Part shown: positions 1,300 through 26,895 of the stretch, piece after piece | How the letters are laid out: each line of letters opens with the position of its first letter | Position numbering within the stretch: position 1 is the first letter of the stretch | NCBI GenBank assembly: GCA_964555985.1 | Contig: CAZKUP010000001.1 | Location: 12,166-44,383 of the forward strand | Reading direction: 5' to 3' | DNA: 32,218 nt | DNA from: an uncultured Clostridium sp. | GTDB taxonomy: Bacteria; Bacillota_I; Bacilli_A; RF39; UBA660 | Translations under genes and position numbers: made by a program | The notes under the pieces: generated by a model | What the model was told of the DNA's origin: nothing | The model's input: only the letters and a program-made list of their open reading frames with translations | Databases searched by the model: none

Positions 1300-3179
1300 G
1301 TAATTATATATGTTTAAATAAAATATGTAAAAAATATAATAAAAATTTTGTTATAAACAATTTTTCTTATACGTTTAAGACAAATGGTCTTTATACAATA
1401 TTTGGAGAAAGTGGAAGTGGTAAAACAACTCTTTTAAATATTATTGCAGGATTAATTTCTTTTGATAGTGGAGAAATATTTTTTAATAATAATAAATATA
1501 AAAGTTTAAATTTTGGTAATATGTCAAATTATATTTCTTATTTAACACAAGATGTGTATTTAATTGAATATTTAAATATATATGATAATTTATTACTGTG
1601 TTCATCTGATATAGAGCTAATTAACAGTTTAATAAAAGAATTAGATTTGGAAAAAACATTAAAACAATATCCAAATGAATTATCAGGCGGAGAAAAACAA
1701 AGAATATCTTTAATACAAACTATTCTAAAAAACAAAAAAATAATAATACTAGATGAACCAACTAGTTCATTAGATGAAAAAAGTAAAAATAAAGTTTATA
1801 AATTATTAAATAAATTAAAGAAAGATCACTTAATTATATGCTCGTCTCATGATAAAGATATAAAAAAATATTCTGATGAAATAATATATTTAAATGAAAA
1901 TAAATTTGAAAAAACTAGTAATACTACTATAGAATGTACAAAAGAAAATAATAAATTACAATATAATTTATATGATTTTGTAAAAAAACAAAATAAATAT
2001 TATAAAAATAAGATAAATATTCTTTTATCTATAACTCTTATATTATGTTTTTTAATTATATATTTTTCATCTAATACAGAAGATAAATTACTAACTTCTC
2101 TTCAAAAAAGATATAATATGAATTATTTAACAGTATATTGTCCAATAAATAGTGATGAATGTAATCGCTTATTTGAAAGCAAAGAAATAACCGAGTATTC
2201 TTTTATTTACCATTTAAATATTCCACTTGAAAGAAGTAAAACCGAAGGATCTGTTGGAAATTCTTTAGAATCTAATATATATACACTTCCTTTAAATATA
2301 AATAATTTTAAATTAGCAAGTAATATAAAATACGGTAGATATATTAAATCAAAAAATGAAATTATTCTAGGGATTGATAAAGCATTATCAATTAATAAAA
2401 ATATTGAATTATTATTAAATAAAAGAATTACTATTAATACAGTTGATGGAGAAAATGATTTTATTATAGTAGGCATATTTGATTATTTTGATAATAACGA
2501 ATATTTTAAAATAGGACAAGTAAATGATCCAAATAATTACTATTTTATAAGTAATGAATTTACTAAACAATATATTTATGATGATATACTTGGATATAAT
2601 GAAGTAGATGTAAGAAAAAGTGTTTATTATGTTTATTTTGATAATTTTAATACACTTTATAAATATTATAATAAGTATGTAAATAATGATATATATAGTA
2701 ATAATATTTATATAGATGCAATCCCATCTTATTTTATAGAAATATCAAATCAAATAAGTATTTTTAAAATAATATTAATACCTATATTTATAATATCAAT
2801 AATAGTAAGCATAATTTATTATTTTCAAACTATGAAAATAGATATAAAATATAAGAAACATAACTATGCAACATATTTATATTATGGTTATAATTTAAAA
2901 GATATAAAAAAATCAACAACTAAAAATAATATTATTAATTTATTAAAAATATTTATATTTTCATTTATAATTTCTTTAATATTATCTTTTATAATAAATA
3001 ATATTAATAATTATTTTAACATAGTATCATATCAAATATTTAATATAAATATTATAGCTGTATGTACATTTTTAATATTATTATTAATATGTTCAATAAT
3101 ATTATCAATATTACTTTCTAAAAATATTAAAATAAATGGTTGGTATAATATAGAGAAAGATAATGGCGATTTATTATGA
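1296..3179 (+). CDS. Fused ABC transporter ATP-binding/permease protein, MacB/FtsX-type
   Basis: Walker A GESGSGKTT, signature LSGGEKQR, Walker B IIILDEPTSSLD, H-loop SSHD. These are followed by TM1, a large extracytoplasmic region and a C-terminal cluster of 3 TM helices (FtsX-like topology). Confidence 0.85.
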   Translation: MSNYICLNKICKKYNKNFVINNFSYTFKTNGLYTIFGESGSGKTTLLNIIAGLISFDSGEIFFNNNKYKSLNFGNMSNYISYLTQDVYLIEYLNIYDNLLLCSSDIELINSLIKELDLEKTLKQYPNELSGGEKQRISLIQTILKNKKIIILDEPTSSLDEKSKNKVYKLLNKLKKDHLIICSSHDKDIKKYSDEIIYLNENKFEKTSNTTIECTKENNKLQYNLYDFVKKQNKYYKNKINILLSITLILCFLIIYFSSNTEDKLLTSLQKRYNMNYLTVYCPINSDECNRLFESKEITEYSFIYHLNIPLERSKTEGSVGNSLESNIYTLPLNINNFKLASNIKYGRYIKSKNEIILGIDKALSINKNIELLLNKRITINTVDGENDFIIVGIFDYFDNNEYFKIGQVNDPNNYYFISNEFTKQYIYDDILGYNEVDVRKSVYYVYFDNFNTLYKYYNKYVNNDIYSNNIYIDAIPSYFIEISNQISIFKIILIPIFIISIIVSIIYYFQTMKIDIKYKKHNYATYLYYGYNLKDIKKSTTKNNIINLLKIFIFSFIISLILSFIINNINNYFNIVSYQIFNINIIAVCTFLILLLICSIILSILLSKNIKINGWYNIEKDNGDLL

Positions 3180-4909
3180 TAAAATTAACTAATATTACAA
3201 AAGAATTTAATGATAATATAATACTTAACAATATTAATATAAGTTTATTTGAGAATAAAATATATTTATTGAAAGGAATTAGTGGTAGTGGTAAAACAAC
3301 ACTTTTAAATATTATTGGTTTATTGGATAGAGAATATAGTGGAGATTATTATTTTAATGAAGAAAATATTACTAGTTTAAATAATAAAGAGTTAAATAAA
3401 ATTAGAAATAATATTGGATATATATTTCAAAAAAGTTTACTTATAAAAAGTCTTAATATAAAAGATAATCTATTATTTATAAATAATGACTACGAATATA
3501 TTCTTAAATTATCAAAAGAATTTAATATAGAACATTTATTAAATAAATATCCAAAAGAACTTTCTGGTGGTGAAAGACAGAGAGTAGCGTTAGTAAGAAC
3601 ACTATTAATGGATACAGATATTATTCTATTAGATGAACCAACTAGTTCACTAGATATTAGTAATGCATTAGTTTTAGTAGAATATATTGAAAAATTAAAA
3701 GAAAAAAATAAGATAATTATAATATCTACTCATTCAAATATATTTGATAATATTGTAGATGAAATATTATATATAAAAGATGGAAGTATTAATCAAAAAG
3801 AAAATAATAACAAATATTTAAGTAATAAAAAAATAGTAAGTAAAAGAAATAATAATATAAAAATGAATATTAAATATGCATTATCTAAACAAAACATATT
3901 TAACAAATTATTAACTATATCACTTACTTCAATTGTATTTCTAATAATATTATTACTTATTTCTTTAAAATTAAATTTTAAAAGTGCATATACACAATAT
4001 TTATCCAAACAATACCCAATAAATACTTATGAAATATCTTTAGATAAATTAATGTTTATTGATAATAATGAAATACAAATATATTATAATTATTCAAATA
4101 AAATAGAAGAGGTTTATTATTTACCATTACTTAATAAAGAAGATTCAATATTTTCTAATAATAAATATTTAGATAGTGGATATTTTCCAAATAATGATAA
4201 TGAAGTTTTAGTAAATAATTTATATTTACAAAATAATGATAATGCTGATTACATAGTAATAAATAATATAAAATATAAAATAGTTGGAGTAATATCTTCT
4301 GATAATAAAATAATTAATGATATATATGAATCATGTCCATATTATATAAATGAATCTATACCACAAGTATTTATTCCATATAATAAAATAAAAAATATTT
4401 ATAATAAAATAGATAGTGATAATATAATGATTTCTACTACTAATAAAGAAGTAAAAGATATATTAAATAATTTAGGATTTTATAATAATTTTGATGATAA
4501 TATAAATAATGTAAATTATACAGTTAATCTATTTACCAATATTTTATTTATTGCAATAATATTTTTATTTGTTATTTTAATTTTTTTTATAACAAACAAT
4601 ATATTATTACACTTATATTATAGAAAAAAAGAAATAGGTTATTTACAAATATTTAATGTATCAAAAAAAAGAATAAAACATATTATTCTACTTGAATATT
4701 CTTTAAAATATATATTATCAATTATAATTTCAATAATGTTATATTTTATTACAATATTATTTATAAGACAAATATTTGGTGTTGATGTAGTACTAAATAT
4801 TGTGGAGTTTCTTTTATCAATTATATTATTTCTTATATATATTTATATTGTTATATCTATACCATTAAGTAAATATTTAAAGAAAGAAATAACTCTATTA
4901 ATAAAGTAG
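3176..4909 (+). CDS. Fused ABC transporter ATP-binding/permease protein, MacB/FtsX-type, tandem paralogue
   Basis: Walker A GISGSGKTT, signature LSGGERQR, Walker B IILLDEPTSSLD, H-loop STHS. C-terminal FtsX-like segment RKKEIGYLQIFNVSKKRIKHII plus TM helices. ATGA overlap with the upstream gene. Confidence 0.85.
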   Translation: MIKLTNITKEFNDNIILNNINISLFENKIYLLKGISGSGKTTLLNIIGLLDREYSGDYYFNEENITSLNNKELNKIRNNIGYIFQKSLLIKSLNIKDNLLFINNDYEYILKLSKEFNIEHLLNKYPKELSGGERQRVALVRTLLMDTDIILLDEPTSSLDISNALVLVEYIEKLKEKNKIIIISTHSNIFDNIVDEILYIKDGSINQKENNNKYLSNKKIVSKRNNNIKMNIKYALSKQNIFNKLLTISLTSIVFLIILLLISLKLNFKSAYTQYLSKQYPINTYEISLDKLMFIDNNEIQIYYNYSNKIEEVYYLPLLNKEDSIFSNNKYLDSGYFPNNDNEVLVNNLYLQNNDNADYIVINNIKYKIVGVISSDNKIINDIYESCPYYINESIPQVFIPYNKIKNIYNKIDSDNIMISTTNKEVKDILNNLGFYNNFDDNINNVNYTVNLFTNILFIAIIFLFVILIFFITNNILLHLYYRKKEIGYLQIFNVSKKRIKHIILLEYSLKYILSIIISIMLYFITILFIRQIFGVDVVLNIVEFLLSIILFLIYIYIVISIPLSKYLKKEITLLIK

Positions 4910-10898: not shown

Positions 10899-12107
10899 AT
10901 GTATATTAATAAAGTAATAAAACAAAATAATGAAGGTTCTGGAATTGTTAAAAATAATGATAAAATAGTATTTGTTCCTTATTCTTTAGCAGGTGATGTA
11001 ATAGATTATAAGATAATAAAAGAAAATAAAAAATATGATGAAGGAAGAATTCTAAATATAATTAATGAATCAAATGAAAGAATTAAACCTATATGTAAAT
11101 ATTATTATAAATGCGGTGGTTGTAATTTAATGCATCAAAAATATAATTGTCAATTAGAATTTAAGAAGAATAAGGTAATTAATAATTTAAAACATATTTC
11201 TAATATAAATATAGATAATATAGATATATTGTATGATAATAATTTTAATTATAGAAATCATATTACTTTATCTGTTAATAAAGATTTAATAGGTTTTTAT
11301 AAAAATAATTCTAATGAAATAATTGATATAGATTATTGTTATATTTCAAATGATAAAATAAATAATGCATTAAAAGAAATAAGATTATTTTTAACCAAAT
11401 ATAAAAATAATTATATAGATAAAATAAGTATTAAAGCATTTGAAGAAGTACTTATTAATATTGAATCTAATAATTTTAATCTTATAAATGAATTTAAAAC
11501 ATTTGTTAATTTTGATTCTTTATATATAAATAATAAATATATTTTAGGTAATAAATATATAATTGCAAATTTAAATAATTATAAATATAAGGTATCATCT
11601 AAAGATTTTTTTCAAAAAAATACAAATATGACTATTAAACTATATGATTATATAAAAGAACTAGTTAATAACGATGAAACAGTGCTTGATTTATATTGTG
11701 GTAGTGGTGGTATAGGAATATATATAAGTGATAAAGTAAATAATGTAATAGGTGTTGAAGTAATAAAAGAAAGTATTGATAATGCACTTGAAAATGCTTT
11801 ATTAAATAATATAAATAATATTAAATTTATATGTGGTAAAACAGAAGATAATATAAATAATATTAAAAATATAGATACAATTATAGTAGATCCTCCAAGA
11901 GTAGGGCTTAATAAAAATGCAATAAAAGATATACTTAAAATAAGTAGTAATAAATTAATTTATGTATCATGTAATTCAACTACTTTAGCAAGAGATATTA
12001 ATTTATTAAAAGAAGATTATGTTATAAAAAGTATTAAATTATTCGATCTTTTCCCTAACACTGAGCATGTTGAAACTGTATGTTTGTTTTTAAGAAAAGA
12101 GAAATAA
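10899..12107 (+). CDS. 23S rRNA (uracil-C5)-methyltransferase, RumA/RlmD/RlmCD family
   Basis: N-terminal TRAM-like region, Cys cluster CKYYYKCGGCNLMH, SAM motif VLDLYCGSGGIG, DPPRVGL, and catalytic-Cys context YVSCNSTTLARD. ATG 10899 follows AGGTGAGGAG; the ORF-track start is 10890. Confidence 0.85.
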   Translation: MYINKVIKQNNEGSGIVKNNDKIVFVPYSLAGDVIDYKIIKENKKYDEGRILNIINESNERIKPICKYYYKCGGCNLMHQKYNCQLEFKKNKVINNLKHISNINIDNIDILYDNNFNYRNHITLSVNKDLIGFYKNNSNEIIDIDYCYISNDKINNALKEIRLFLTKYKNNYIDKISIKAFEEVLINIESNNFNLINEFKTFVNFDSLYINNKYILGNKYIIANLNNYKYKVSSKDFFQKNTNMTIKLYDYIKELVNNDETVLDLYCGSGGIGIYISDKVNNVIGVEVIKESIDNALENALLNNINNIKFICGKTEDNINNIKNIDTIIVDPPRVGLNKNAIKDILKISSNKLIYVSCNSTTLARDINLLKEDYVIKSIKLFDLFPNTEHVETVCLFLRKEK

Positions 12108-13282: not shown

Positions 13283-13612
13283 ATGGAAAGAATATATAAT
13301 AAGTTAGTTAGAGATAATATACCTATTATAATAAAAAATAATGGGGAAATGCCTATTATTAGAGTATTAAATGAAAGTGAATATAAAAAAGAACTTGAAA
13401 AGAAATTGTATGAGGAATATAAAGAAATAATAGATGCGGGTGGTGATAATCGAATTGAAGAACTTGCTGATATGTTAGAAGTAATTAAAGCATTAGCTAG
13501 TTTAGAAAATAAAAATTTAAATGATATTATAGAAGTTGCTGAAAGAAAAAATATAAAGCGTGGCGCTTTTGATGAAAAGATTTTTCTTGAGAAAGTTATA
13601 GAGCCAAAGTAG
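13283..13612 (+). CDS. MazG-like all-alpha NTP pyrophosphohydrolase (house-cleaning type)
   Basis: 109 aa. The N-terminal YNKLVRDNIP and the EELADMLEV...RG.F..KIFL pattern are characteristic of small MazG-superfamily proteins. Confidence 0.7.
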   Translation: MERIYNKLVRDNIPIIIKNNGEMPIIRVLNESEYKKELEKKLYEEYKEIIDAGGDNRIEELADMLEVIKALASLENKNLNDIIEVAERKNIKRGAFDEKIFLEKVIEPK

Positions 13613-13651: not shown

Positions 13652-14113
13652 ATGAAATTAATTGTTAAAGAAAAACTTTTATCAATGCATGATAGATATT
13701 ATATTTATAATGATAAAGAGGAAATTGCTTATGAAATAGTAAGTAGAATGATTTCTATTGGAGATAAGACTACAATATATGATAAAGATGGTAATATTAT
13801 TGCATATATTGAACAAAAGGTAATGCATTATATGCCATGCTATAATGTTTATATTAAGAATAAATATAAATTTGAAATTAAAAAGAAGTATCATTTATTT
13901 AAAAATAATTATAAGTTAAGTAATGATTATAAAGTAGATGGAAGTATATTTAATTTAAATTTTTCTATCTTAAATAATAAAGATAAAATTATTGCAAAAA
14001 TTAAAAGAAAATTTATAACAATAAGTGATAAATATGAAATAGATATATTAGATACTAAAGATTTAATTACAATATTGACTATTATTGTTGCAATTACTAA
14101 TGATAGGGATTAG
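13652..14113 (+). CDS. YxjI / LURP-one-related (tubby C-terminal-like) protein
   Basis: MKLIVKEKLLSMHDRYYIYNDKEEIAYEI...GDKTTIYDKDGNIIAYIEQKV is typical of the DUF567/YxjI family. GGAGG lies before ATG 13652; the ORF-track start is 13622. Confidence 0.55.
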   Translation: MKLIVKEKLLSMHDRYYIYNDKEEIAYEIVSRMISIGDKTTIYDKDGNIIAYIEQKVMHYMPCYNVYIKNKYKFEIKKKYHLFKNNYKLSNDYKVDGSIFNLNFSILNNKDKIIAKIKRKFITISDKYEIDILDTKDLITILTIIVAITNDRD

Positions 14114-14139
14114 ATAAGTCTAAGAGAGTTATTTCTTTA
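14090..14139 (+). repeat. Direct repeat copy L: last 24 nt of the yxjI-like CDS plus 26 nt downstream
   Basis: GCAATTACTAATGATAGGGATTAGATAAGTCTAAGAGAGTTATTTCTTTA. It matches 15159-15208 at 49 of 50 positions; the single difference turns TAG into TAA. Confidence 0.95.
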
Positions 14140-14144
14140 GAATA

Positions 14145-14174
14145 TTGACAAATCTATTATAATTAATATATATT
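14145..14174 (+). promoter_or_regulatory. SigmaA-like promoter of the cassette gene
   Basis: TTGACA (14145-14150), then an A/T-rich -10 candidate: ATATAT at 17 nt or TATATT at 18 nt. Confidence 0.4.
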
Positions 14175-14198
14175 AATTATAGAGAGGAGGTGACTTTT

Positions 14199-15107
14199 GT
14201 GAGAAAATATTTATTTATGTTTATGTTGTTTTTTCTACCAACAATACGTTCTATAAATGCATTAGAAAATGATATGTATGTTAATAATAATGGTATTATA
14301 ATTTCTAATTTAGAATATAACAATTTAATTAATAGTGGGTATAGTAGCAATGAAATAAGCAATATGACTCAATCTGAATTTAATGAAAATAAAGATTTAA
14401 GTGGTCAAGTTGTTGCACAAACAACTAAGTATTATAGAGTTGAAACTTTTGTTTCAAATAATCAATATTTTACTTTAGCAAATAAAGATAAATCTTATAC
14501 TTCTATTTCCTATGAAATTTCTGAATCTGAATTTAATAATGCAAAAAGTGCACCATTTGAATCAAGTGTTATTAATGCAAGTGCAGTTGTAGAAACCACC
14601 TATAAAAAAATGACAACATCTATTGTGAAATATAATAGTAATTATAGATATAAAAATGTTGTTTTATGGAAGAAATTACCTGCATATAGGGTAAATGACA
14701 TTATAGGAGTTGGATTTGAAGATAAAGTATATGGCGTGTCTTCTTCAAAAAGATTAGTTGCATATTATATATATGATGATAGTTGTGATGTTAATATTAC
14801 AAATACAGGCACATGGAAACTAAGTGCGAATGGATATGCGGTAGCATTTGATTATCCTACTAAATCCAAAAATGCAACCAATGAGAATTTTTATGTAGAA
14901 ATGTATTTTGATGTTGGTAAAAATACTTCATTAACTATAAATACATTAAATGCATACGGAGACTATAAACATTTAATTGGTTCAAAAAGCCATGTTTCTA
15001 CAAGTATAAGTATTGACTTGGGTGGTATCAGCGTTGGAGCTAGTTTTGAATCTTATTATGATAGCATTTCAACCGCTCAAGCAACATTAACAAACATAAA
15101 TTGGTAA
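14199..15107 (+). CDS. Secreted protein of unknown function, about 281 aa mature
   Basis: GGAGG (14186-14190) lies 8 nt before GTG 14199; the ORF-track start at 14190 sits inside the RBS. Signal peptide VRKYLFMFMLFFLPTIRSINA|LEND. There is an internal short repeat (TQSEFNENKD / SESEFNNAKS) and a T/S/N/Y-rich composition. Confidence 0.7.
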   Translation: MRKYLFMFMLFFLPTIRSINALENDMYVNNNGIIISNLEYNNLINSGYSSNEISNMTQSEFNENKDLSGQVVAQTTKYYRVETFVSNNQYFTLANKDKSYTSISYEISESEFNNAKSAPFESSVINASAVVETTYKKMTTSIVKYNSNYRYKNVVLWKKLPAYRVNDIIGVGFEDKVYGVSSSKRLVAYYIYDDSCDVNITNTGTWKLSANGYAVAFDYPTKSKNATNENFYVEMYFDVGKNTSLTINTLNAYGDYKHLIGSKSHVSTSISIDLGGISVGASFESYYDSISTAQATLTNINW

Positions 15108-15118
15108 TTTTTCATATA

Positions 15119-15152
15119 GAACTAGGTGTGTATTTTATATACCTAGTTTTTT
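15119..15152 (+). terminator. Rho-independent terminator of the cassette gene
   Basis: AACTAGGT (15120-15127) pairs with ACCTAGTT (15141-15148), followed by a T-run. Confidence 0.7.
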
Positions 15153-15158
15153 ATTATA

Positions 15159-15208
15159 GCAATTACTAATGATAGGGATTAAATAAGTCTAAGAGAGTTA
15201 TTTCTTTA
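15159..15208 (+). repeat. Direct repeat copy R, with no ORF upstream of it
   Basis: 49/50 identical to 14090-14139. Confidence 0.95.
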
Positions 15209-15236
15209 AAATAATAATACTTTAAAATAATAATCC

Positions 15237-15264
15237 TTGACAAATAATAAATAAAAAGTATAAT
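15237..15264 (+). promoter_or_regulatory. SigmaA-like promoter of the L,D-transpeptidase gene
   Basis: TTGACA (15237-15242), 16-nt spacer, TATAAT (15259-15264). Confidence 0.45.
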
Positions 15265-15286: not shown

Positions 15287-16033
15287 ATGAATAAAACTAA
15301 AAGAAAATTAATTGCTTATTCTCTTCTTTTAACAAGTTTAATGGGTTGTAAGAATAAAGAAGATGTTATTTTAGAAACTATTCCTATGGAAACTAGTGAG
15401 ATAATTAGTTATAGTGAAACAGAAACAAGCACTATAGAAGAAAAGAAAGAAATACCTATGTATTACTCATATTATTCTTTTGTAAATGAAGATACCTCGT
15501 TTTATAATGAGGATATGGAATACACTAAAGATATAGAAAAATATCAAAGAGTTATAGTGTCAGAGCCTTTGAATTTTGAAAAGGAACAAACTGATTATGC
15601 TTATGTAATATTAGATGATGGAACATTTGGTTATATTGATTATTCTAAATTAACTACTTTACCTGAATCTTTTATTGAAGTAGATATTAGTGAGCAACGT
15701 CTTGTATGTTTTTATGAAAATGATGTTACGCTTATATGTGATGTTGTAACAGGTAATCCTTCTGTTGGTACAATACCGGGTACTAATTTAGGTTATACAC
15801 AAATAAATGGTAAATTAAGAAAGACTCATTTGATGGGGAACGCTTATGTTGAAATTTTTATATCATTTAATTCTCATGGAGAAGGGTTCCATGATGCTTC
15901 TTGGAGAAGTGAATTTGGTGGAGATATTTATTTAAATAATGGTTCTCATGGTTGTGTTAATATGAGATATTCTGATGTTGTTGAGCTTGATAAATATACT
16001 GAAGTTGGAACAAAAGTTTTAATACATAAATAA
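15287..16033 (+). CDS. L,D-transpeptidase (YkuD-domain) lipoprotein
   Basis: Lipobox SLMGC. The C-terminal catalytic signature HGEGFHDASWRSEFGG...NGSHGCVNM matches the YkuD His/Cys motif. Confidence 0.8.
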   Translation: MNKTKRKLIAYSLLLTSLMGCKNKEDVILETIPMETSEIISYSETETSTIEEKKEIPMYYSYYSFVNEDTSFYNEDMEYTKDIEKYQRVIVSEPLNFEKEQTDYAYVILDDGTFGYIDYSKLTTLPESFIEVDISEQRLVCFYENDVTLICDVVTGNPSVGTIPGTNLGYTQINGKLRKTHLMGNAYVEIFISFNSHGEGFHDASWRSEFGGDIYLNNGSHGCVNMRYSDVVELDKYTEVGTKVLIHK

Positions 16034-20398: not shown

Positions 20399-20439
20399 GA
20401 TATATAAAATTAGAAATAATTATTATATAAATATTAAAA
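20399..20439 (+). promoter_or_regulatory. Conserved 41-nt leader element, copy 1
   Basis: GATATATAAAATTAGAAATAATTATTATATAAATATTAAAA. It is 40/41 identical to 25170-25210 and ends 18 nt before ATG 20457. Confidence 0.85.
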
Positions 20440-22826: not shown

Positions 22827-23518
22827 TTTATTTATTTAAAAAATTTCTAAAAAATAAAATATTTATAATATATATTTCATTATTTTTAGTACTTATTTAT
22901 TTAGTTAATAAATCATATTTACCTATTAAAATAGAATATATGATGGAATCTAATATTACTAATAATAATTATTTACTTTATAGTGTACTTCTTCCAATAG
23001 TATACTATGACAATTCTATATTAGAAAGTATTATATTAGATTTATCTTATTATTGTATAGTATCTTATCTTGTAGTGTCTTATGTTGATTTATTTTTTAA
23101 TGAAATGGTTAACGTAATATTTACTAAAATAAAAAGAGATATATCTATTAAAAATATATTAATATGTAATATTATATTTTCTTTTATAATAGTTCTTGGT
23201 TATATCTTATATTTTTATATTCTTTTTAGTATTAAAAAAATTGATTTTATATTTGATATAAATGTAATTATATTATTAATAATAAAAATACTTATTACTC
23301 TGTTGCTAACTAATTTATATATTAATTTATATATTAATACTAAAAATATACCAATTTCACTTATATTACCATATATGTTATATGTTGTATTTGAATTATT
23401 AATAAGACTTATTTTTAGTAATTTAAATTATATATTTGTTATTATCTTTATACTAATAATATTTAATTATTATATATATTTATCTAATAAAAAAATAATT
23501 TTAAGGAGTGATTTATGA
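22823..23518 (+). CDS. Polytopic membrane protein, putative second permease component
   Basis: 231 aa with about 6 hydrophobic helices. It has ATGA overlaps on both sides (22823, 23515). Confidence 0.55.
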   Translation: MIYLFKKFLKNKIFIIYISLFLVLIYLVNKSYLPIKIEYMMESNITNNNYLLYSVLLPIVYYDNSILESIILDLSYYCIVSYLVVSYVDLFFNEMVNVIFTKIKRDISIKNILICNIIFSFIIVLGYILYFYILFSIKKIDFIFDINVIILLIIKILITLLLTNLYINLYINTKNIPISLILPYMLYVVFELLIRLIFSNLNYIFVIIFILIIFNYYIYLSNKKIILRSDL

Positions 23519-24138
23519 TGAATTTAATAGAAATTAAAAATGTATCTAAAAAATTTAATGAAAATATTGTTGTAAATAATGTTTCATTATCAATAAAAAA
23601 GGGTAGTATAGTAGGTATAATAGGTAGGAATGGGTCAGGAAAAACAGTTCTTTTAAAAATGATATCTTCACTATATTATCCTACTGAAGGAGAGATTATT
23701 TTAAATAATGTTAACATACAAAATGATTTTGGAATACTTATAGATACAGGATTTATGAATAATATTTCTGGATATGAAAATTTAAAAATATTATCTAACT
23801 TAAATAATAAAACAAATGATTCTGATATAATTGAAATAATGAAACTAGTTACTTTAGAGCCATTTTCAAAGAAAAAATATAAAGATTATTCAACAGGTAT
23901 GAAGCAAAAATTAAAGATTGCTCAGGCAATTATGGATAAACCAAAAGTATTAATACTTGATGAACCATTTAATGGGTTAGATAAAGAAAGTGTTAAATAT
24001 TTTAGAGAATTATTTTTAAATATGAATAAAGAAGGTACGACTATAATTATTACTAGTCATTATAAAGAAGATATTGATATTTTATGCAAAGAAGTATATG
24101 AAATGGATAATGGTATTATAAATAAAATAAATATTTAA
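23515..24138 (+). CDS. ABC transporter ATP-binding protein, ABC-2 / immunity-type subfamily
   Basis: Walker A GRNGSGKT, signature variant YSTGMKQKL, Walker B VLILDEPFNGLD, H-loop TSHY. It is 207 aa with no fused permease. Confidence 0.85.
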   Translation: MMNLIEIKNVSKKFNENIVVNNVSLSIKKGSIVGIIGRNGSGKTVLLKMISSLYYPTEGEIILNNVNIQNDFGILIDTGFMNNISGYENLKILSNLNNKTNDSDIIEIMKLVTLEPFSKKKYKDYSTGMKQKLKIAQAIMDKPKVLILDEPFNGLDKESVKYFRELFLNMNKEGTTIIITSHYKEDIDILCKEVYEMDNGIINKINI

Positions 24139-24155
24139 AAATTTACAAAAAAGTA

Positions 24156-24184
24156 TTGACATTTATACTAAAATAAAATATATT
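24156..24184 (+). promoter_or_regulatory. Orphan sigmaA-like promoter
   Basis: TTGACA (24156-24161), 17-nt spacer, TATATT (24179-24184). Confidence 0.4.
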
Positions 24185-24189
24185 CATAT

Positions 24190-24326
24190 TGCTTGCAAAA
24201 ATATAATCATTTGCAAGTATCATTATTTACTTATTTTTTATTTATTTTGTTTTGTTCTATTCTTATCTGTCATGTTACTAAGAATAGATATGTCTAGCCT
24301 CTATTAAAAAAGATAGAGGCTTTTTG
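24190..24326 (+). ncRNA. Candidate small structured RNA or orphan leader: three hairpins, the last a terminator
   Basis: Hairpins: CTTGCAAA/TTTGCAAG (24192-24217); TCTATTCTTA/TAAGAATAGA (24256-24288, a perfect 10 bp); AGCCTCTAT/ATAGAGGCT plus TTTTT (24296-24325). There is no ORF of 60 aa or more on either strand. Confidence 0.3.
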
Positions 24327-24497
24327 TTATATGAAGCAAAGATTGTAATATATGTTTAAATATTAATAAGCTAGTTAATAATAGTTAGATAAAATTATAA
24401 TGTGTATTATTTATAAATATCCCTAGCTCATATGGTATAAGTAATAAACTATTTTGAATGAAAATTTTTACTAACAATACCGAACACGAGTTTGTAG

Positions 24498-25082
24498 ATA
24501 AGCAGATTATATGGAAATAAAACTATAAAAGTTAAAATAAATGAAAGTAATATATATAAATTAGATTGTTTATATGATAATCCACATGTAGAAAAAATAA
24601 TAGAAAATCATTTAAATAATAATGAATTTGAATATAAAATTATTATAAATAAATTTAATAATATGGAATCTGTATTAAATATTTTAGAAGATTTGAATTT
24701 AAATATTATTTTAAAAAGTGATATCAATTATAATCAAAATTTTATAAATTTAATCCCAATATTCAAGTTGTTTATTATAATAATTTATATGTTTTTTATA
24801 TTATATTCAATTATTATTGTAAAAAATGTTATTAAAAAAGAAAAAAACAAAATATTTGTATTAAAAACTATAGGCTATAGTAATAGAAATATAAACAAAA
24901 TAATAAACAGTATCTTATTTTTTATTATTAATAATTGCTTTATTGTGAATATAATAATTGTATTATTAAGTATGATATTTCTACACAATACAATTCCATT
25001 TATTACATGGAACTTAAGTAGAAAAGCTATTATATTATTTACTAACTATATTATTTTTATAGTTTCTTTGATATTAGTGTGA
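24498..25082 (+). pseudogene. 3' remnant of a MacB/FtsX-type permease gene, lacking the ATPase domain and TM1
   Basis: The frame is open from 24498, after TAG at 24495-24497. It encodes the end of an extracytoplasmic domain, then TM-KKEKNKIFVLKTIGYSNRNINKII-TM-TM, which is the FtsX C-terminal architecture. The first in-frame ATG is 24663, with no RBS. Confidence 0.6.
24949..25076 (+). repeat. Direct repeat copy A (permease 3' end)
   Basis: 128 nt with no indels and about 13 mismatches against 26723-26850, by hand alignment. Confidence 0.9.
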
Positions 25083-25105
25083 ATTAAAACTTAGAAAATT
25101 GAATA

Positions 25106-25134
25106 TTGACTACCAAAAAAAATTGTAGTATATT
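25106..25134 (+). promoter_or_regulatory. SigmaA-like promoter of the metzincin cassette
   Basis: TTGACT (25106-25111), 17-nt spacer, TATATT (25129-25134). Confidence 0.45.
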
Positions 25135-25169
25135 TTATTTGAAGATATGATATGAAAGTTTGCTAATGG

Positions 25170-25210
25170 GATATATAAAATTAGAAATAATTTTTATATA
25201 AATATTAAAA
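25170..25210 (+). promoter_or_regulatory. Conserved 41-nt leader element, copy 2
   Basis: GATATATAAAATTAGAAATAATTTTTATATAAATATTAAAA. It ends 23 nt before ATG 25233. Confidence 0.85.
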
Positions 25211-25232
25211 AAGGAAGAGGTGATATAAACTT

Positions 25233-25835
25233 ATGAAAAAAAAATTAAAGAATATTTTGCTTTTCGCTATAGTTTTGCTTGTACCAATAAATTTTGCAAA
25301 AGCAGAAACTGCACCACCATGGATTAATGCAAAATATACAAGAGGAATAGATAGAATTTCTTGGTATATGTCATACGAAGATAATGGCGGTTGGTATGAA
25401 AATTTAATTATTAAAGCACTTAATAATTGGATGCAACCAGGTTGGTATAATCCTATAGTGTTTGTAGCAGCAAGTAGCAATGCGGGTACTATGATGGATA
25501 TATATTCAAAACCAAGTACATTTTGGAGATCGTATGTCCCATCAGCAGAAACAAGACATTATGATGGCTCTGATAATCAGTTGAAACCTAATACAAGTGG
25601 TAAATTATCTCAAGATTATGTATTTACAAGAGTTTTTCTAAATGATGATCAATTGCATAATCTACCTGCTGATTTATTGCAGGGAGTTATTGCTCATGAA
25701 GTAGGGCATACACTTGGATTAGATGAAAATAATACTAATAGATATAGTATTATGTGTCAATATTTAAATGGTACAAGGCTAGTAAATACGGTTCAAAAAA
25801 TTGATAATGACACAGTTGTAAGTATTTATAGTTAG
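25233..25835 (+). CDS. Secreted minimal zinc metalloprotease, metzincin-like
   Basis: Signal peptide MKKKLKNILLFAIVLLVPINFAKA|ETAPP. It has the zinc motif HEVGHTLGLDEN (HExxHxxG) and a downstream Met-turn candidate, RYSIMCQY. The mature form is about 176 aa. Confidence 0.75.
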   Translation: MKKKLKNILLFAIVLLVPINFAKAETAPPWINAKYTRGIDRISWYMSYEDNGGWYENLIIKALNNWMQPGWYNPIVFVAASSNAGTMMDIYSKPSTFWRSYVPSAETRHYDGSDNQLKPNTSGKLSQDYVFTRVFLNDDQLHNLPADLLQGVIAHEVGHTLGLDENNTNRYSIMCQYLNGTRLVNTVQKIDNDTVVSIYS

Positions 25836-25845
25836 GGAGGAACTT

Positions 25846-26556
25846 ATGAAAAAAAGGAATTTATTAATAATATTTGTATTTATATTTGTAATATCTATTT
25901 GTTTGGTTTTGAATAATAAGAAAGATATGAAATTTGATACAAATAATGATAATGCGAATGATGATGTTGTAATTGATATAAATCAATATGCATATGTTGA
26001 GTATCTATATGATTTAAATGATAAGAATGTATTAACTGATTTATTTGATTATATTGCAATAATAAAAATTAAATCTGTTGATGGAGTAGATAACTATGAT
26101 TATGTTTCTAATGATTATGTGAGTCCTTATACTTATGGTAAGGCGGAGGTTTTAAAAGTGATTAAAGGCAATATTTCTAATAAAGAAATAAGTTATAATA
26201 GATTGGGTGGTAAAATATCTTTTACAAAATATATAGAAGGCGAAGAATATAAACCCGTCGACTTTAAGAGAATATATAATATTAGTAATATTGATGATAG
26301 CAAAATAATCATAAATGCAACTTATTCAAAAGATATTGATATAGAACCTGGGAAAATTTATTTAGCATTTTTAGAGTATAAAGAGGGTGTTAATAGAGAA
26401 AACGAATATTGGATAGGTGGTATGGAATATGGACTTAGGGAATTAAGTGATAGTAATATTTCAATAAATAATATAGACACTATAAAAGTAAGAAATAATA
26501 CTACTAAAAAATATGAATCTATTAATGAAGTTATAAATTTAGATATTAAAAAATAA
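25846..26556 (+). CDS. Membrane-anchored or secreted protein of unknown function, co-transcribed with the metalloprotease
   Basis: A GGGAGG RBS precedes it. The N-terminal hydrophobic segment is LLIIFVFIFVISICLVL. It lies 10 nt downstream of the protease stop. Confidence 0.6.
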   Translation: MKKRNLLIIFVFIFVISICLVLNNKKDMKFDTNNDNANDDVVIDINQYAYVEYLYDLNDKNVLTDLFDYIAIIKIKSVDGVDNYDYVSNDYVSPYTYGKAEVLKVIKGNISNKEISYNRLGGKISFTKYIEGEEYKPVDFKRIYNISNIDDSKIIINATYSKDIDIEPGKIYLAFLEYKEGVNRENEYWIGGMEYGLRELSDSNISINNIDTIKVRNNTTKKYESINEVINLDIKK

Positions 26557-26605
26557 AAAATAATTATTGACTATTATTAAAAATTATTTCATTTTACAAT
26601 ATTTT

Positions 26606-26638
26606 AAAAACTTTTATCTTAATGATAAAGTTTTTTTA
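26606..26638 (+). terminator. Rho-independent terminator of the metzincin cassette
   Basis: ACTTTTATC (26610-26618) pairs with GATAAAGT (26624-26631) with one bulge, followed by TTTTTTT. Confidence 0.6.
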
Positions 26639-26712
26639 TTAGCAATATCGAAGATGAGTTTACACAAAAAAATTAATGTAAAATTTTTATTTAAAATGTA
26701 ATAATAAGTTAA

Positions 26713-26895
26713 TCTAAGGAAAATATAATAATTGTATTATTAAGTATGATATTTCTACATAATATAATTCCATTTGTTACATGGAACTTAAGTAGAAAAA
26801 TTATCATTTTATCTGCTAACTATATAGTTTTTATTGTATCTTTGATATTAATTAAAAAAATTATATTAAAAAGATATAGCTATTATATTTTTTAA
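26713..26895 (+). pseudogene. Orphan 3' end fragment of a second FtsX-type permease gene
   Basis: The open frame 26713-26895 encodes ...IIIVLLSMIFLHNIIPFVTWNLSRKIIILSANYIVFIVSLILIKK.... This parallels the last 45 or so codons of 24498-25082. There is no start codon with an RBS. Confidence 0.6.
26723..26850 (+). repeat. Direct repeat copy B (permease 3' end)
   Basis: See 24949-25076. The differences are mostly conservative at the protein level (T/I, I/V, A/I, F/S). Confidence 0.9.

Follow-up and report, generated by a model that had tools for sequence, protein, structure and literature searches.

A Putative Laterally Exchanged One-Gene Cassette in the yxjI-ldt Intergenic Region of an Uncultured Clostridium sp.

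Organization of the yxjI-ldt Locus

The DNA analyzed here, herein referred to as the window, is a stretch of 32,218 nucleotides (nt) from contig CAZKUP010000001.1 (positions 12,166 to 44,383 of the forward strand) in the assembly GCA_964555985.1 of an uncultured Clostridium sp. The window sequence indicates a very AT-rich Firmicute host (about 22% GC), in which GerA-type germination genes and a T-box leader are present. Three consecutive genes, all on the forward strand, are considered. The first of these (13652-14113) is similar to yxjI and encodes a LURP-one-related (LOR) protein (Pfam: PF04525, E 4e-17), called as 153 amino acids (aa) on Logan contigs. The third, ldt (15287-16033), encodes an L,D-transpeptidase of the YkuD type (Pfam: PF03734). 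Between them lies a gene for a 302-aa protein. Judged by the sequence comparisons given below, this feature appears to be a real, laterally exchanged one-gene accessory cassette in the yxjI-ldt intergenic region.

The cassette is bracketed by a direct repeat. Positions 14090-14139 and 15159-15208 share 49 of their 50 nucleotides, and the sole mismatch (G14113 vs. A15182) turns TAG into TAA. No match of this kind arose in 100 dinucleotide-preserving shuffles, so that the initial annotation of the repeat was correct in this respect. It was equally correct in stating that the left copy duplicates the 3' end of the YxjI-like gene, as the left 50-mer consists of the final 24 nt of the coding sequence and 26 nt beyond it. 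The proposed length of 50 nt applies only to the core of the repeat. Without gaps, the similarity covers 63 nt (14082-14144 and 15151-15213, 94% identical); with one indel allowed, it reaches through the -35 box TTGACAAAT (14145-14153 and 15237-15245). A single-copy stretch of 72 nt in the related contig L013 (2094-2165) aligns with both window copies, and by this alignment the duplicated segment is about 72 nt long rather than 50 nt.

The left, resident copy (14082-14153) includes up to 32 nt of the yxjI 3' end, the stop codon, 26 nt, the spacer GAATA, and TTGACAAAT. The right, cassette-linked copy (15151-15245) includes a relic of the yxjI 3' end with the TAG to TAA change, a 28-nt spacer, and TTGACAAAT. 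The right spacer region (15205-15236) contains a 16-nt tandem duplication (CTTTAAAATAATAATA / CTTTAAAATAATAATC). A 12-mer related to this 16-mer, TTAAAATAATCC, occurs in three copies at the left junction of the related contig L077 (approximately 180-215). The number of tandem repeats between the repeat core and the -35 box varies by allele, shifting the distance between the upstream gene and the promoter.

The window contains exactly two copies of the 50-mer. The pattern AATTACTAATGATAG N{3,4} TARATA, representing the repeat core, had five matches in the metagenome collection, none of them resembling the window, and a slightly longer pattern had no matches in viral contigs. The possibility of a generic dispersed repeat, named in the initial annotation as an observation that would contradict mobility, was rejected on the basis of these searches. 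No terminal inverted repeats adjoining the direct repeats were found. Folding of the repeat is no better than that of shuffled sequence (z from -0.4 to -1.6), and no significant hairpin was found; an attC-like or terminator-like structure in the repeat is thus unsupported.

The sequence between the 50-mers had been described as a self-contained unit with a TTGACA promoter, a ribosome-binding site, a GTG start, a 302-aa open reading frame (ORF), and its own terminator. All of these elements were found on the forward strand. The cassette promoter (14145-14174) has the form TTGACA-18-TATATT and fits the consensus in 11 of 12 positions. The ribosome-binding site AGGAGG, read from the sequence, is located at 14185-14190, 8 nt upstream of the GTG start at 14199, and the gene extends to 15107. 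An intrinsic terminator follows at 15118-15150 (one found vs. 0.1 expected in shuffles). Alignment with the empty site described below places the -35 box TTGACA within the duplicated segment, and only the -10 box TATATT is cassette-specific. Therefore the unit is not fully self-contained: the -10 box, the ribosome-binding site, the gene, and the terminator are its own, but the -35 box is part of the duplicated target segment.

The right repeat copy is followed, as had been noted, by the ldt promoter (15237-15264, TTGACA-16-TATAAT, 12 of 12 consensus positions). Its -35 box comes from the right repeat copy. Its -10 box TATAAT is resident, since the same -10 box and leader are present in the empty allele L013. 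In the simplest reading of this arrangement, the insertion point lies immediately 3' of TTGACAAAT and separates the -35 box of ldt from its -10 box, and the unit terminates in its own diverged copy of the approximately 72 nt preceding that point. In that case, the cassette gene would use the resident -35 box, and ldt would use a replacement -35 box donated by the insert.

Empty and Filled Alleles in Related Genomes

The locus with the cassette was found on several Logan contigs of the window's lineage, which were retrieved via exact-protein look-ups and are 99.5-100% identical to the window (L001-L009). The scan of the genome collection with the YxjI protein gave no matches; the species therefore has no sufficiently close representative there. 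The closest YxjI variant, P0047 (93% identical, 154 aa), is encoded on three contigs, of which the sequence was read for L013 and L014. In these two contigs, the gene order is TMEM164, yxjI, one copy of the segment (…CTTTAAAAGTATATTGACAATT…TATAAT), and ldt, without the cassette; in L013, ldt (2209-2991) is located immediately 3' of the single repeat copy. The initial annotation had predicted exactly such an empty site, consisting of the yxjI-like gene, one repeat copy, and the ldt promoter, and had proposed to look for it in relatives.

Both contigs cross the site without a break in the assembly graph, and their spacer variant, AAAGTATA TTGACAATT, is their own. Therefore they are not collapsed filled alleles, and the L013 spacer is not a chimera of any filled allele. 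The cassette is present in L077-L079, encoding the protein variant P0177, with flanks 98.6% (yxjI 3' end) and 97.4% (ldt) identical to those of L013. Another filled allele, on a different backbone, is found in L084, and L012 together with L091 represents a further filled lineage. Thus, the presence of the cassette is polymorphic among close relatives.

Two observations concern contig ends at this site. The contig L083 (Logan SRR22923244, 1110-1142) diverges from all other alleles three bases after the yxjI stop codon (GTTAGTATTTACAGCTGATTATAGAAAAAA) and then ends; it may represent a third allele or a different insert at the yxjI-ldt site. Three cassette-only contigs, L007, L008, and L012 (1099, 1098, and 1094 nt), have self-overlapping ends and were considered as excised circles. 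The end overlaps (30, 29, and 23 nt, respectively) and the break points coincide with stretches common to both repeat copies, and L091 ends at the same base as L012. The contigs are therefore explained equally well by breaks of the de Bruijn graph and are no evidence for circles.

Separate Histories of the Cassette and Its Flanks

Between lineages, the synonymous divergence (dS) of the cassette is about one fourth of that of the flanking genes. Between the window and L077, dS is 0.081 for the cassette, 0.304 for ldt, 0.314 for the metallophosphoesterase gene, and 0.262 for the rhodanese gene (p = 6e-7; Fisher test on synonymous differences, cassette vs. flanking genes). Between the window and L084, the corresponding values are 0.060, 0.236, 0.298, and 0.268 (p = 2e-7). 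At the nucleotide level, the cassette coding sequences of the window and L077 are 97.7% identical, and the three downstream genes are 89-92% identical. This island of low divergence reaches no more than a few tens of bases beyond the cassette in either direction. L077 has an L013-type left flank that continues to where the repeat ends, and its ldt is of the L013 type from the -35 box on. The low dS relative to the flanks therefore points to lateral exchange of the cassette between lineages after their split.

For comparison of the repeat copies, all left, right, and empty-site copies were aligned. The right copies of L012, L077, and L084 have a common 1-nt deletion (TATAG-AATTAC) that occurs in no left copy; a deletion of this type is tolerable only in a non-coding relic. 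The stop regions of the same three right copies match C-terminal variants of YxjI from other strains. Thus, the L077 right copy, GAAATTAG, corresponds to the NDRN ending of P0168/P0170, and the L012 right copy, GAGCTAGATAA, corresponds to the NDRAR ending of P0172. The left spacers (AAAGCATA, GCATA, and GAATA) resemble the AAAGTATA of the empty allele, and the right spacers are of a different type, AAAATAAT(AAT)CC. In most lineages, L077 excepted, the left copy with its spacer corresponds to the local chromosome or to the empty allele. In L077, the left repeat is of the local type and the right repeat is foreign to its own lineage. By these comparisons, the right repeat copy appears to have been inherited together with the cassette. 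The proposed insertion of a mobile unit is thus supported by the empty allele, by the low dS of the cassette, and by the right copy travelling with it.

The boundaries of the insertion are alike in four lineages, TTGACAAAY/CTATTA on the left and TTATTATA/G(C)AATTAC on the right (the slash marks the junction). The 15-nt block AATTACTAATGATAG is invariant in all copies, as is TTGACAA. The left and right sequence mosaics differ from lineage to lineage. In the window's lineage, the two 50-mers are nearly identical although their spacers differ, which suggests gene conversion or a crossover within the segment.

The 302-aa Protein and Its Family

The N-terminus of the cassette product resembles a signal peptide, with predicted cleavage at MRKYLFMFMLFFLPTIRSINA/LE. 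No match to this protein was found in Pfam, NCBIfam, or the PDB sequences, in agreement with the initial annotation, which had recognized no family. In the protein collection, 46 homologues were found, none of them named. In metagenome-assembled genomes of uncultured gut Bacilli, 56 loci encoding the family were found; multiple copies in one genome, or tandem pairs, are common. Among the organisms recorded are Candidatus Coprovivens and bacteria labeled 'Mollicutes' or 'Tenericutes', and isolate names indicate samples from rabbit, goat, mouse, and Hadza humans. Distant relatives (26-30% identity), annotated as hypothetical, are encoded by megaplasmids of the Bacillus cereus group.

A confident AlphaFold2 model built from the family alignment (predicted local distance difference test, pLDDT, 85; predicted template modeling score, pTM, 0.83) has a short helical region followed by beta-sandwich domains. 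Foldseek gave weak matches (E about 1e-4; template modeling score, TM, 0.2-0.3) to Ig-like domains of Gram-positive adhesins, namely ClfA, C-terminal domains of SpaP/SspB, Als, and pilins. The sequence contains no LPXTG motif. The modeled fold suggests that the cassette product is probably a cell-surface or secreted beta-sandwich protein, adhesin-like.

The search of the viral library gave nothing specific for this protein. A tblastn search against phage genomes gave no match, and a single match was located at the edge of one 101-kb viral contig; carriage of the cassette by phages is thus unsupported. Among the 56 other loci of the family, none has flanking repeats comparable to those of the window, and none has a neighboring LOR gene. 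Flanking repeats as a property of the protein family were rejected on this basis. A functional link between LOR proteins and the cassette family was rejected as well; in the next relatives, the genes downstream of LOR are also unrelated. The repeat appears, from these loci, to be specific to the yxjI-ldt site and not to the gene family.

In one genome, members of the family are carried by an integrative island. This island, found in GCA_965647905.1 (L011, 2518-11071), is 8.4 kb long and is located at tRNA-Pro, at the end of a cluster of 11 tRNA genes. It contains a gene for a tyrosine integrase (2664-3761, minus strand), an excisionase-sized ORF, helix-turn-helix (HTH) regulators, and two tandem paralogues of the cassette gene. 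A 51-nt repeat of the tRNA-Pro 3' end (30 nt exact), at 2578-2628 and 11021-11071, marks the two borders of the island. As cargo of an integrase island, the two paralogues imply that the family is mobile cargo elsewhere too.

A Second Unit with Similar Architecture

Another direct repeat of approximately 130 nt (90% identical) was found at 24948-25078 and 26722-26852, flanking a unit at 25079-26721; the unit lies about 10 kb from the yxjI-ldt cassette. It contains a promoter region, genes for a Met-zincin-like signal-peptide protein of 200 aa (25233-25835) and a 236-aa protein (25846-26556), and a terminator-like hairpin. The left copy of the repeat comprises the last 43 codons of a membrane-protein ORF (24663-25082), and the repeat boundary is exactly where this ORF terminates with LILV*. 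In the right copy, a relic, the sequence reads on as LILIKKIILKRYSYYIF*. The sole homologue found, P0179 (89% identical), ends with …LILFKKIYIKKI*, like the relic. The second unit is best read from this comparison as an insertion-duplication, in which the functional gene copy would have been truncated and its native end left behind the insert.

Two further features were observed in this region. A 41-nt repeat, GATATATAAAATTAGAAATAATTWTTATATAAATATTAAAA (98% identical), occurs at 20399-20439 and 25170-25210, in both cases just 5' of the ribosome-binding site of a signal-peptide gene (starts at approximately 20458 and 25233); it probably serves both genes as a promoter, operator, or leader. No long ORF was found at 24139-24662, between an ABC ATPase gene (23515-24138) and a 139-aa FtsX-like tail ORF, the frame of which continues upstream without a start codon. 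A permease gene located there may be degraded or mis-started.

Possible Mechanisms of Insertion

The window ORFs of 90 aa or more include no recognizable recombinase family, and no recombinase was found on the related contigs carrying the cassette. The initial annotation, which had seen no recombinase inside or beside the cassette, thus holds for the whole window. No transposase was found in the window either, and a duplication of approximately 72 nt is far beyond the target-site duplications made by transposases (2-15 bp). What is duplicated corresponds to one unbroken piece of the target without the insert, each copy running on into one flank (L013 2094-2165 vs. the window); this is the signature of a Campbell-type single crossover. 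A Campbell-type insertion-duplication, by a cassette without an enzyme of its own, is the reading that we favor, and we consider it slightly more probable than all others together.

Under this model, the ancestral site would have consisted of the yxjI 3' end, a short spacer, TTGACAAAT as the -35 box, the -10 box, and ldt. The donor would be a circle composed of the cassette and a single segment copy, recombining with the segment in the chromosome. The junction of such a circle, or of a tandem array, would read terminator, one repeat copy, TTGACAAAT, and CTATTATAAT. Recombination between the direct repeats would lead to precise loss of the cassette, regenerating the circle and the empty site. 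The recombination could be driven by homology, through host RecA or its equivalent, or performed by a recombinase encoded elsewhere, and not by a cassette enzyme. Homology is favored because the mosaics vary between lineages, because the repeat has no core structure, and because a second unit is present in the window. The repeat of that unit is longer and unrelated to the first one, and it therefore favors a general homology-based process over one site-specific enzyme.

Several points weigh against this model. The alleles of the relatives are known from short Logan contigs, products of a de Bruijn graph, alone, and neither a circular form nor an excision junction was observed in the assembled contigs. 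The search for recombinases covered only the window and the cassette contigs. In L077, the left spacer is of the cassette-linked type and the right spacer, CAGTGAATCTGTGTAC, is novel, which does not fit a single simple crossover; together with the likeness of the two 50-mers in the window's lineage, this misfit implies that the history includes more than one recombination event. The Campbell model leaves the origin of the first duplication unexplained. Finally, similar patterns would result if the cassette had spread by uptake of DNA and ordinary double-crossover replacement, with the imported flanks eroding later.

The initial annotation had offered two mechanisms, site-specific integration and duplication-mediated insertion. 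Neither is decided by the data, which lean away from a classical att/integrase system because of the lack of a recombinase, the lack of a visible conserved core structure, and the lineage-varying boundaries of the mosaics. Site-specific movement nevertheless deserves attention as an alternative, in which the 1,069-bp unit at the yxjI 3' end would be a non-autonomous element, comparable to the CIMEs and pseudo-SCC elements treated below, with the repeats as attL and attR, moved by a tyrosine or serine recombinase whose gene lies elsewhere in the genome or on a co-resident element. In its favor are the direct repeats, which include and regenerate the target's own 3' end, the single-copy empty site, insertion boundaries shared by four lineages, the invariant 15-nt block AATTACTAATGATAG, and the two family paralogues carried by the integrase island of GCA_965647905.1. 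We nevertheless regard this explanation as rather unlikely. No recombinase is encoded in the window or beside any allele, the repeat has no inverted core-type sites or structure, and the varying left and right mosaics are unexpected for a fixed crossover point. Moreover, the 130-nt repeat of the second unit is wholly coding and unrelated, and one recombinase specificity would not explain both.

Alternatively, the cassette could be ancestral and immobile, with the repeat originating from a local duplication and L013/L014 from a secondary deletion. Direct repeats of 50-70 nt readily mediate deletions, all sampled contigs of the window's lineage carry the cassette, and the empty state was found in three contigs only. 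This scenario is hard to reconcile with a cassette dS about fourfold below that of the flanks between lineages and with the right copy of L077, foreign to its own lineage. The L013 junction lacks the right-copy markers, namely the G-AATTAC deletion and the spacers of the AAAATAATCC or CAGTG... type, so that its origin by deletion would require crossing over within the 9 nt of the -35 box. In addition, no other genome with the protein family has a member beside a LOR gene. Altogether, we consider an ancestral cassette improbable. A chance match or an assembly artefact as the source of the repeat or of the empty site is most improbable: the relatives are indeed represented by short de Bruijn-graph contigs, several of which break exactly at the repeat, but the 49/50 match was absent from the 100 shuffles, the same structure was assembled independently in more than 10 samples, and the empty-site contigs, from at least two samples, are unbranched through the site and have their own sequence variants.

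Comparison with Known Systems

Campbell insertions, as known from suicide plasmids and circles carrying a target fragment, share with the window a duplication that is contiguous with the target, the left copy joining upstream and the right copy downstream. They differ in that the window cassette is a natural unit of 1 kb without a replicon or selectable backbone, for which a circular donor would have to be assumed. Cis-mobilizable elements (CIMEs) are decayed integrative and conjugative or integrative mobilizable elements (ICEs/IMEs) that retain attL and attR after loss of the integrase and transfer genes (PMC5704250). The window cassette is similar in having direct repeats, one cargo gene, and no mobility genes. 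Unlike CIMEs, it is a unit of 1.07 kb with one gene and with mosaic boundaries that vary by lineage, and no cognate ICE/IME or yxjI-targeting integrase was found. No integrase-bearing element at the 3' end of a LOR gene was present in any fetched locus, the genome-wide search being limited.

Staphylococcal cassette chromosome (SCC) elements integrate at the 3' end of rlmH (orfX) and are flanked by direct repeats that duplicate the gene end; pseudo-SCC forms lack recombinase genes and rely on Ccr enzymes in trans. Similarly, the window cassette is located at the 3' end of a conserved gene and is bracketed by repeats duplicating the gene end. In contrast, it has another target gene, another host, and another repeat sequence, there is no ccr-like serine recombinase gene in its vicinity, and its repeat is much longer, reaching into the next promoter. 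The tRNA-Pro island described above also has the duplicated target 3' end at both junctions and carries the same cargo family, but it encodes an integrase, an excisionase-sized ORF, and HTH regulators, none of which is present in the window cassette.

Integron gene cassettes resemble the window unit in size (about 1 kb), in the single ORF, and in having no recombinase inside. In contrast to them, the window unit has no attC-like palindrome, IntI, or attI; it has its own -10 box and terminator, and its repeats copy a gene end. As in site-specific integrative elements in general, the repeats share a core with the single-copy empty site, but no recombinase adjoins them. Unlike transposons and insertion sequences, the window cassette has no terminal inverted repeats, no transposase, and no short target-site duplication. 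Elements bounded by duplicated gene ends are thus well known, including integrase islands, CIMEs, and SCC. Unusual in the window are the minimal size, the lack of an enzyme, the rewiring of promoters, and the second example 10 kb away.

Other Variable Genes near LOR Loci

A gene for a 109-aa protein (13283-13612), with no Pfam match and MazG-like by eye, is located between TMEM164 and yxjI. This gene is missing in L013 and L014 as well as in L006 (approximately 975-985), which is otherwise 99.5% identical to the window. In L081 (117-446), a copy with about 83% DNA identity is located upstream of TMEM164 instead. The 109-aa gene is thus a second one-gene polymorphism of presence and position. 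A cassette-like repeat around it was rejected, because the junction score of 23 was reached by 29% of random window pairs; at the junctions, the microhomology AAAGTA alone remains.

The gene 3' of the LOR gene differs between L015 (6534-7301) and L016 (1930-2634), both from the next-closest LOR lineage (YxjI about 68% identical). The first 94 residues of the two proteins are 91% identical, followed by full divergence (255 vs. 234 aa), and different gene sets are found after this gene. Both L015 and L017 encode a large serine recombinase about 5.7 kb farther downstream. Here, too, a variable region begins just after a LOR gene.

Implications for Gene Flux in Gut Bacillota

The yxjI-ldt locus, with its empty, filled, and transferred alleles, offers a natural example of how single accessory genes may be gained and lost in the small genomes of uncultured gut Firmicutes without an element-encoded recombinase. 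The comparisons also define an unnamed, multi-copy family of secreted beta-sandwich proteins, candidate surface or adhesion factors. If homology-driven integration of circles is true, a widespread and under-annotated route of gene flux would be recognizable by ordinary direct repeats of gene ends. The split promoter, with the resident -35 box for the cassette gene and the donated -35 box for ldt, would then show how insertions avoid silencing of the downstream gene.

A broader and more speculative proposal, which we think doubtful at present, is that low-GC gut Bacillota harbor a class of recombinase-less micro-cassettes. Such units would carry one or two genes for secreted proteins with their own -10 box and terminator, pass between lineages in the form of small circles, and integrate at resident gene 3' ends by recombination through a carried target copy of 70-130 nt. 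If this class exists, its integration would rewire promoters, and the two units in the 32-kb window would be its first examples.

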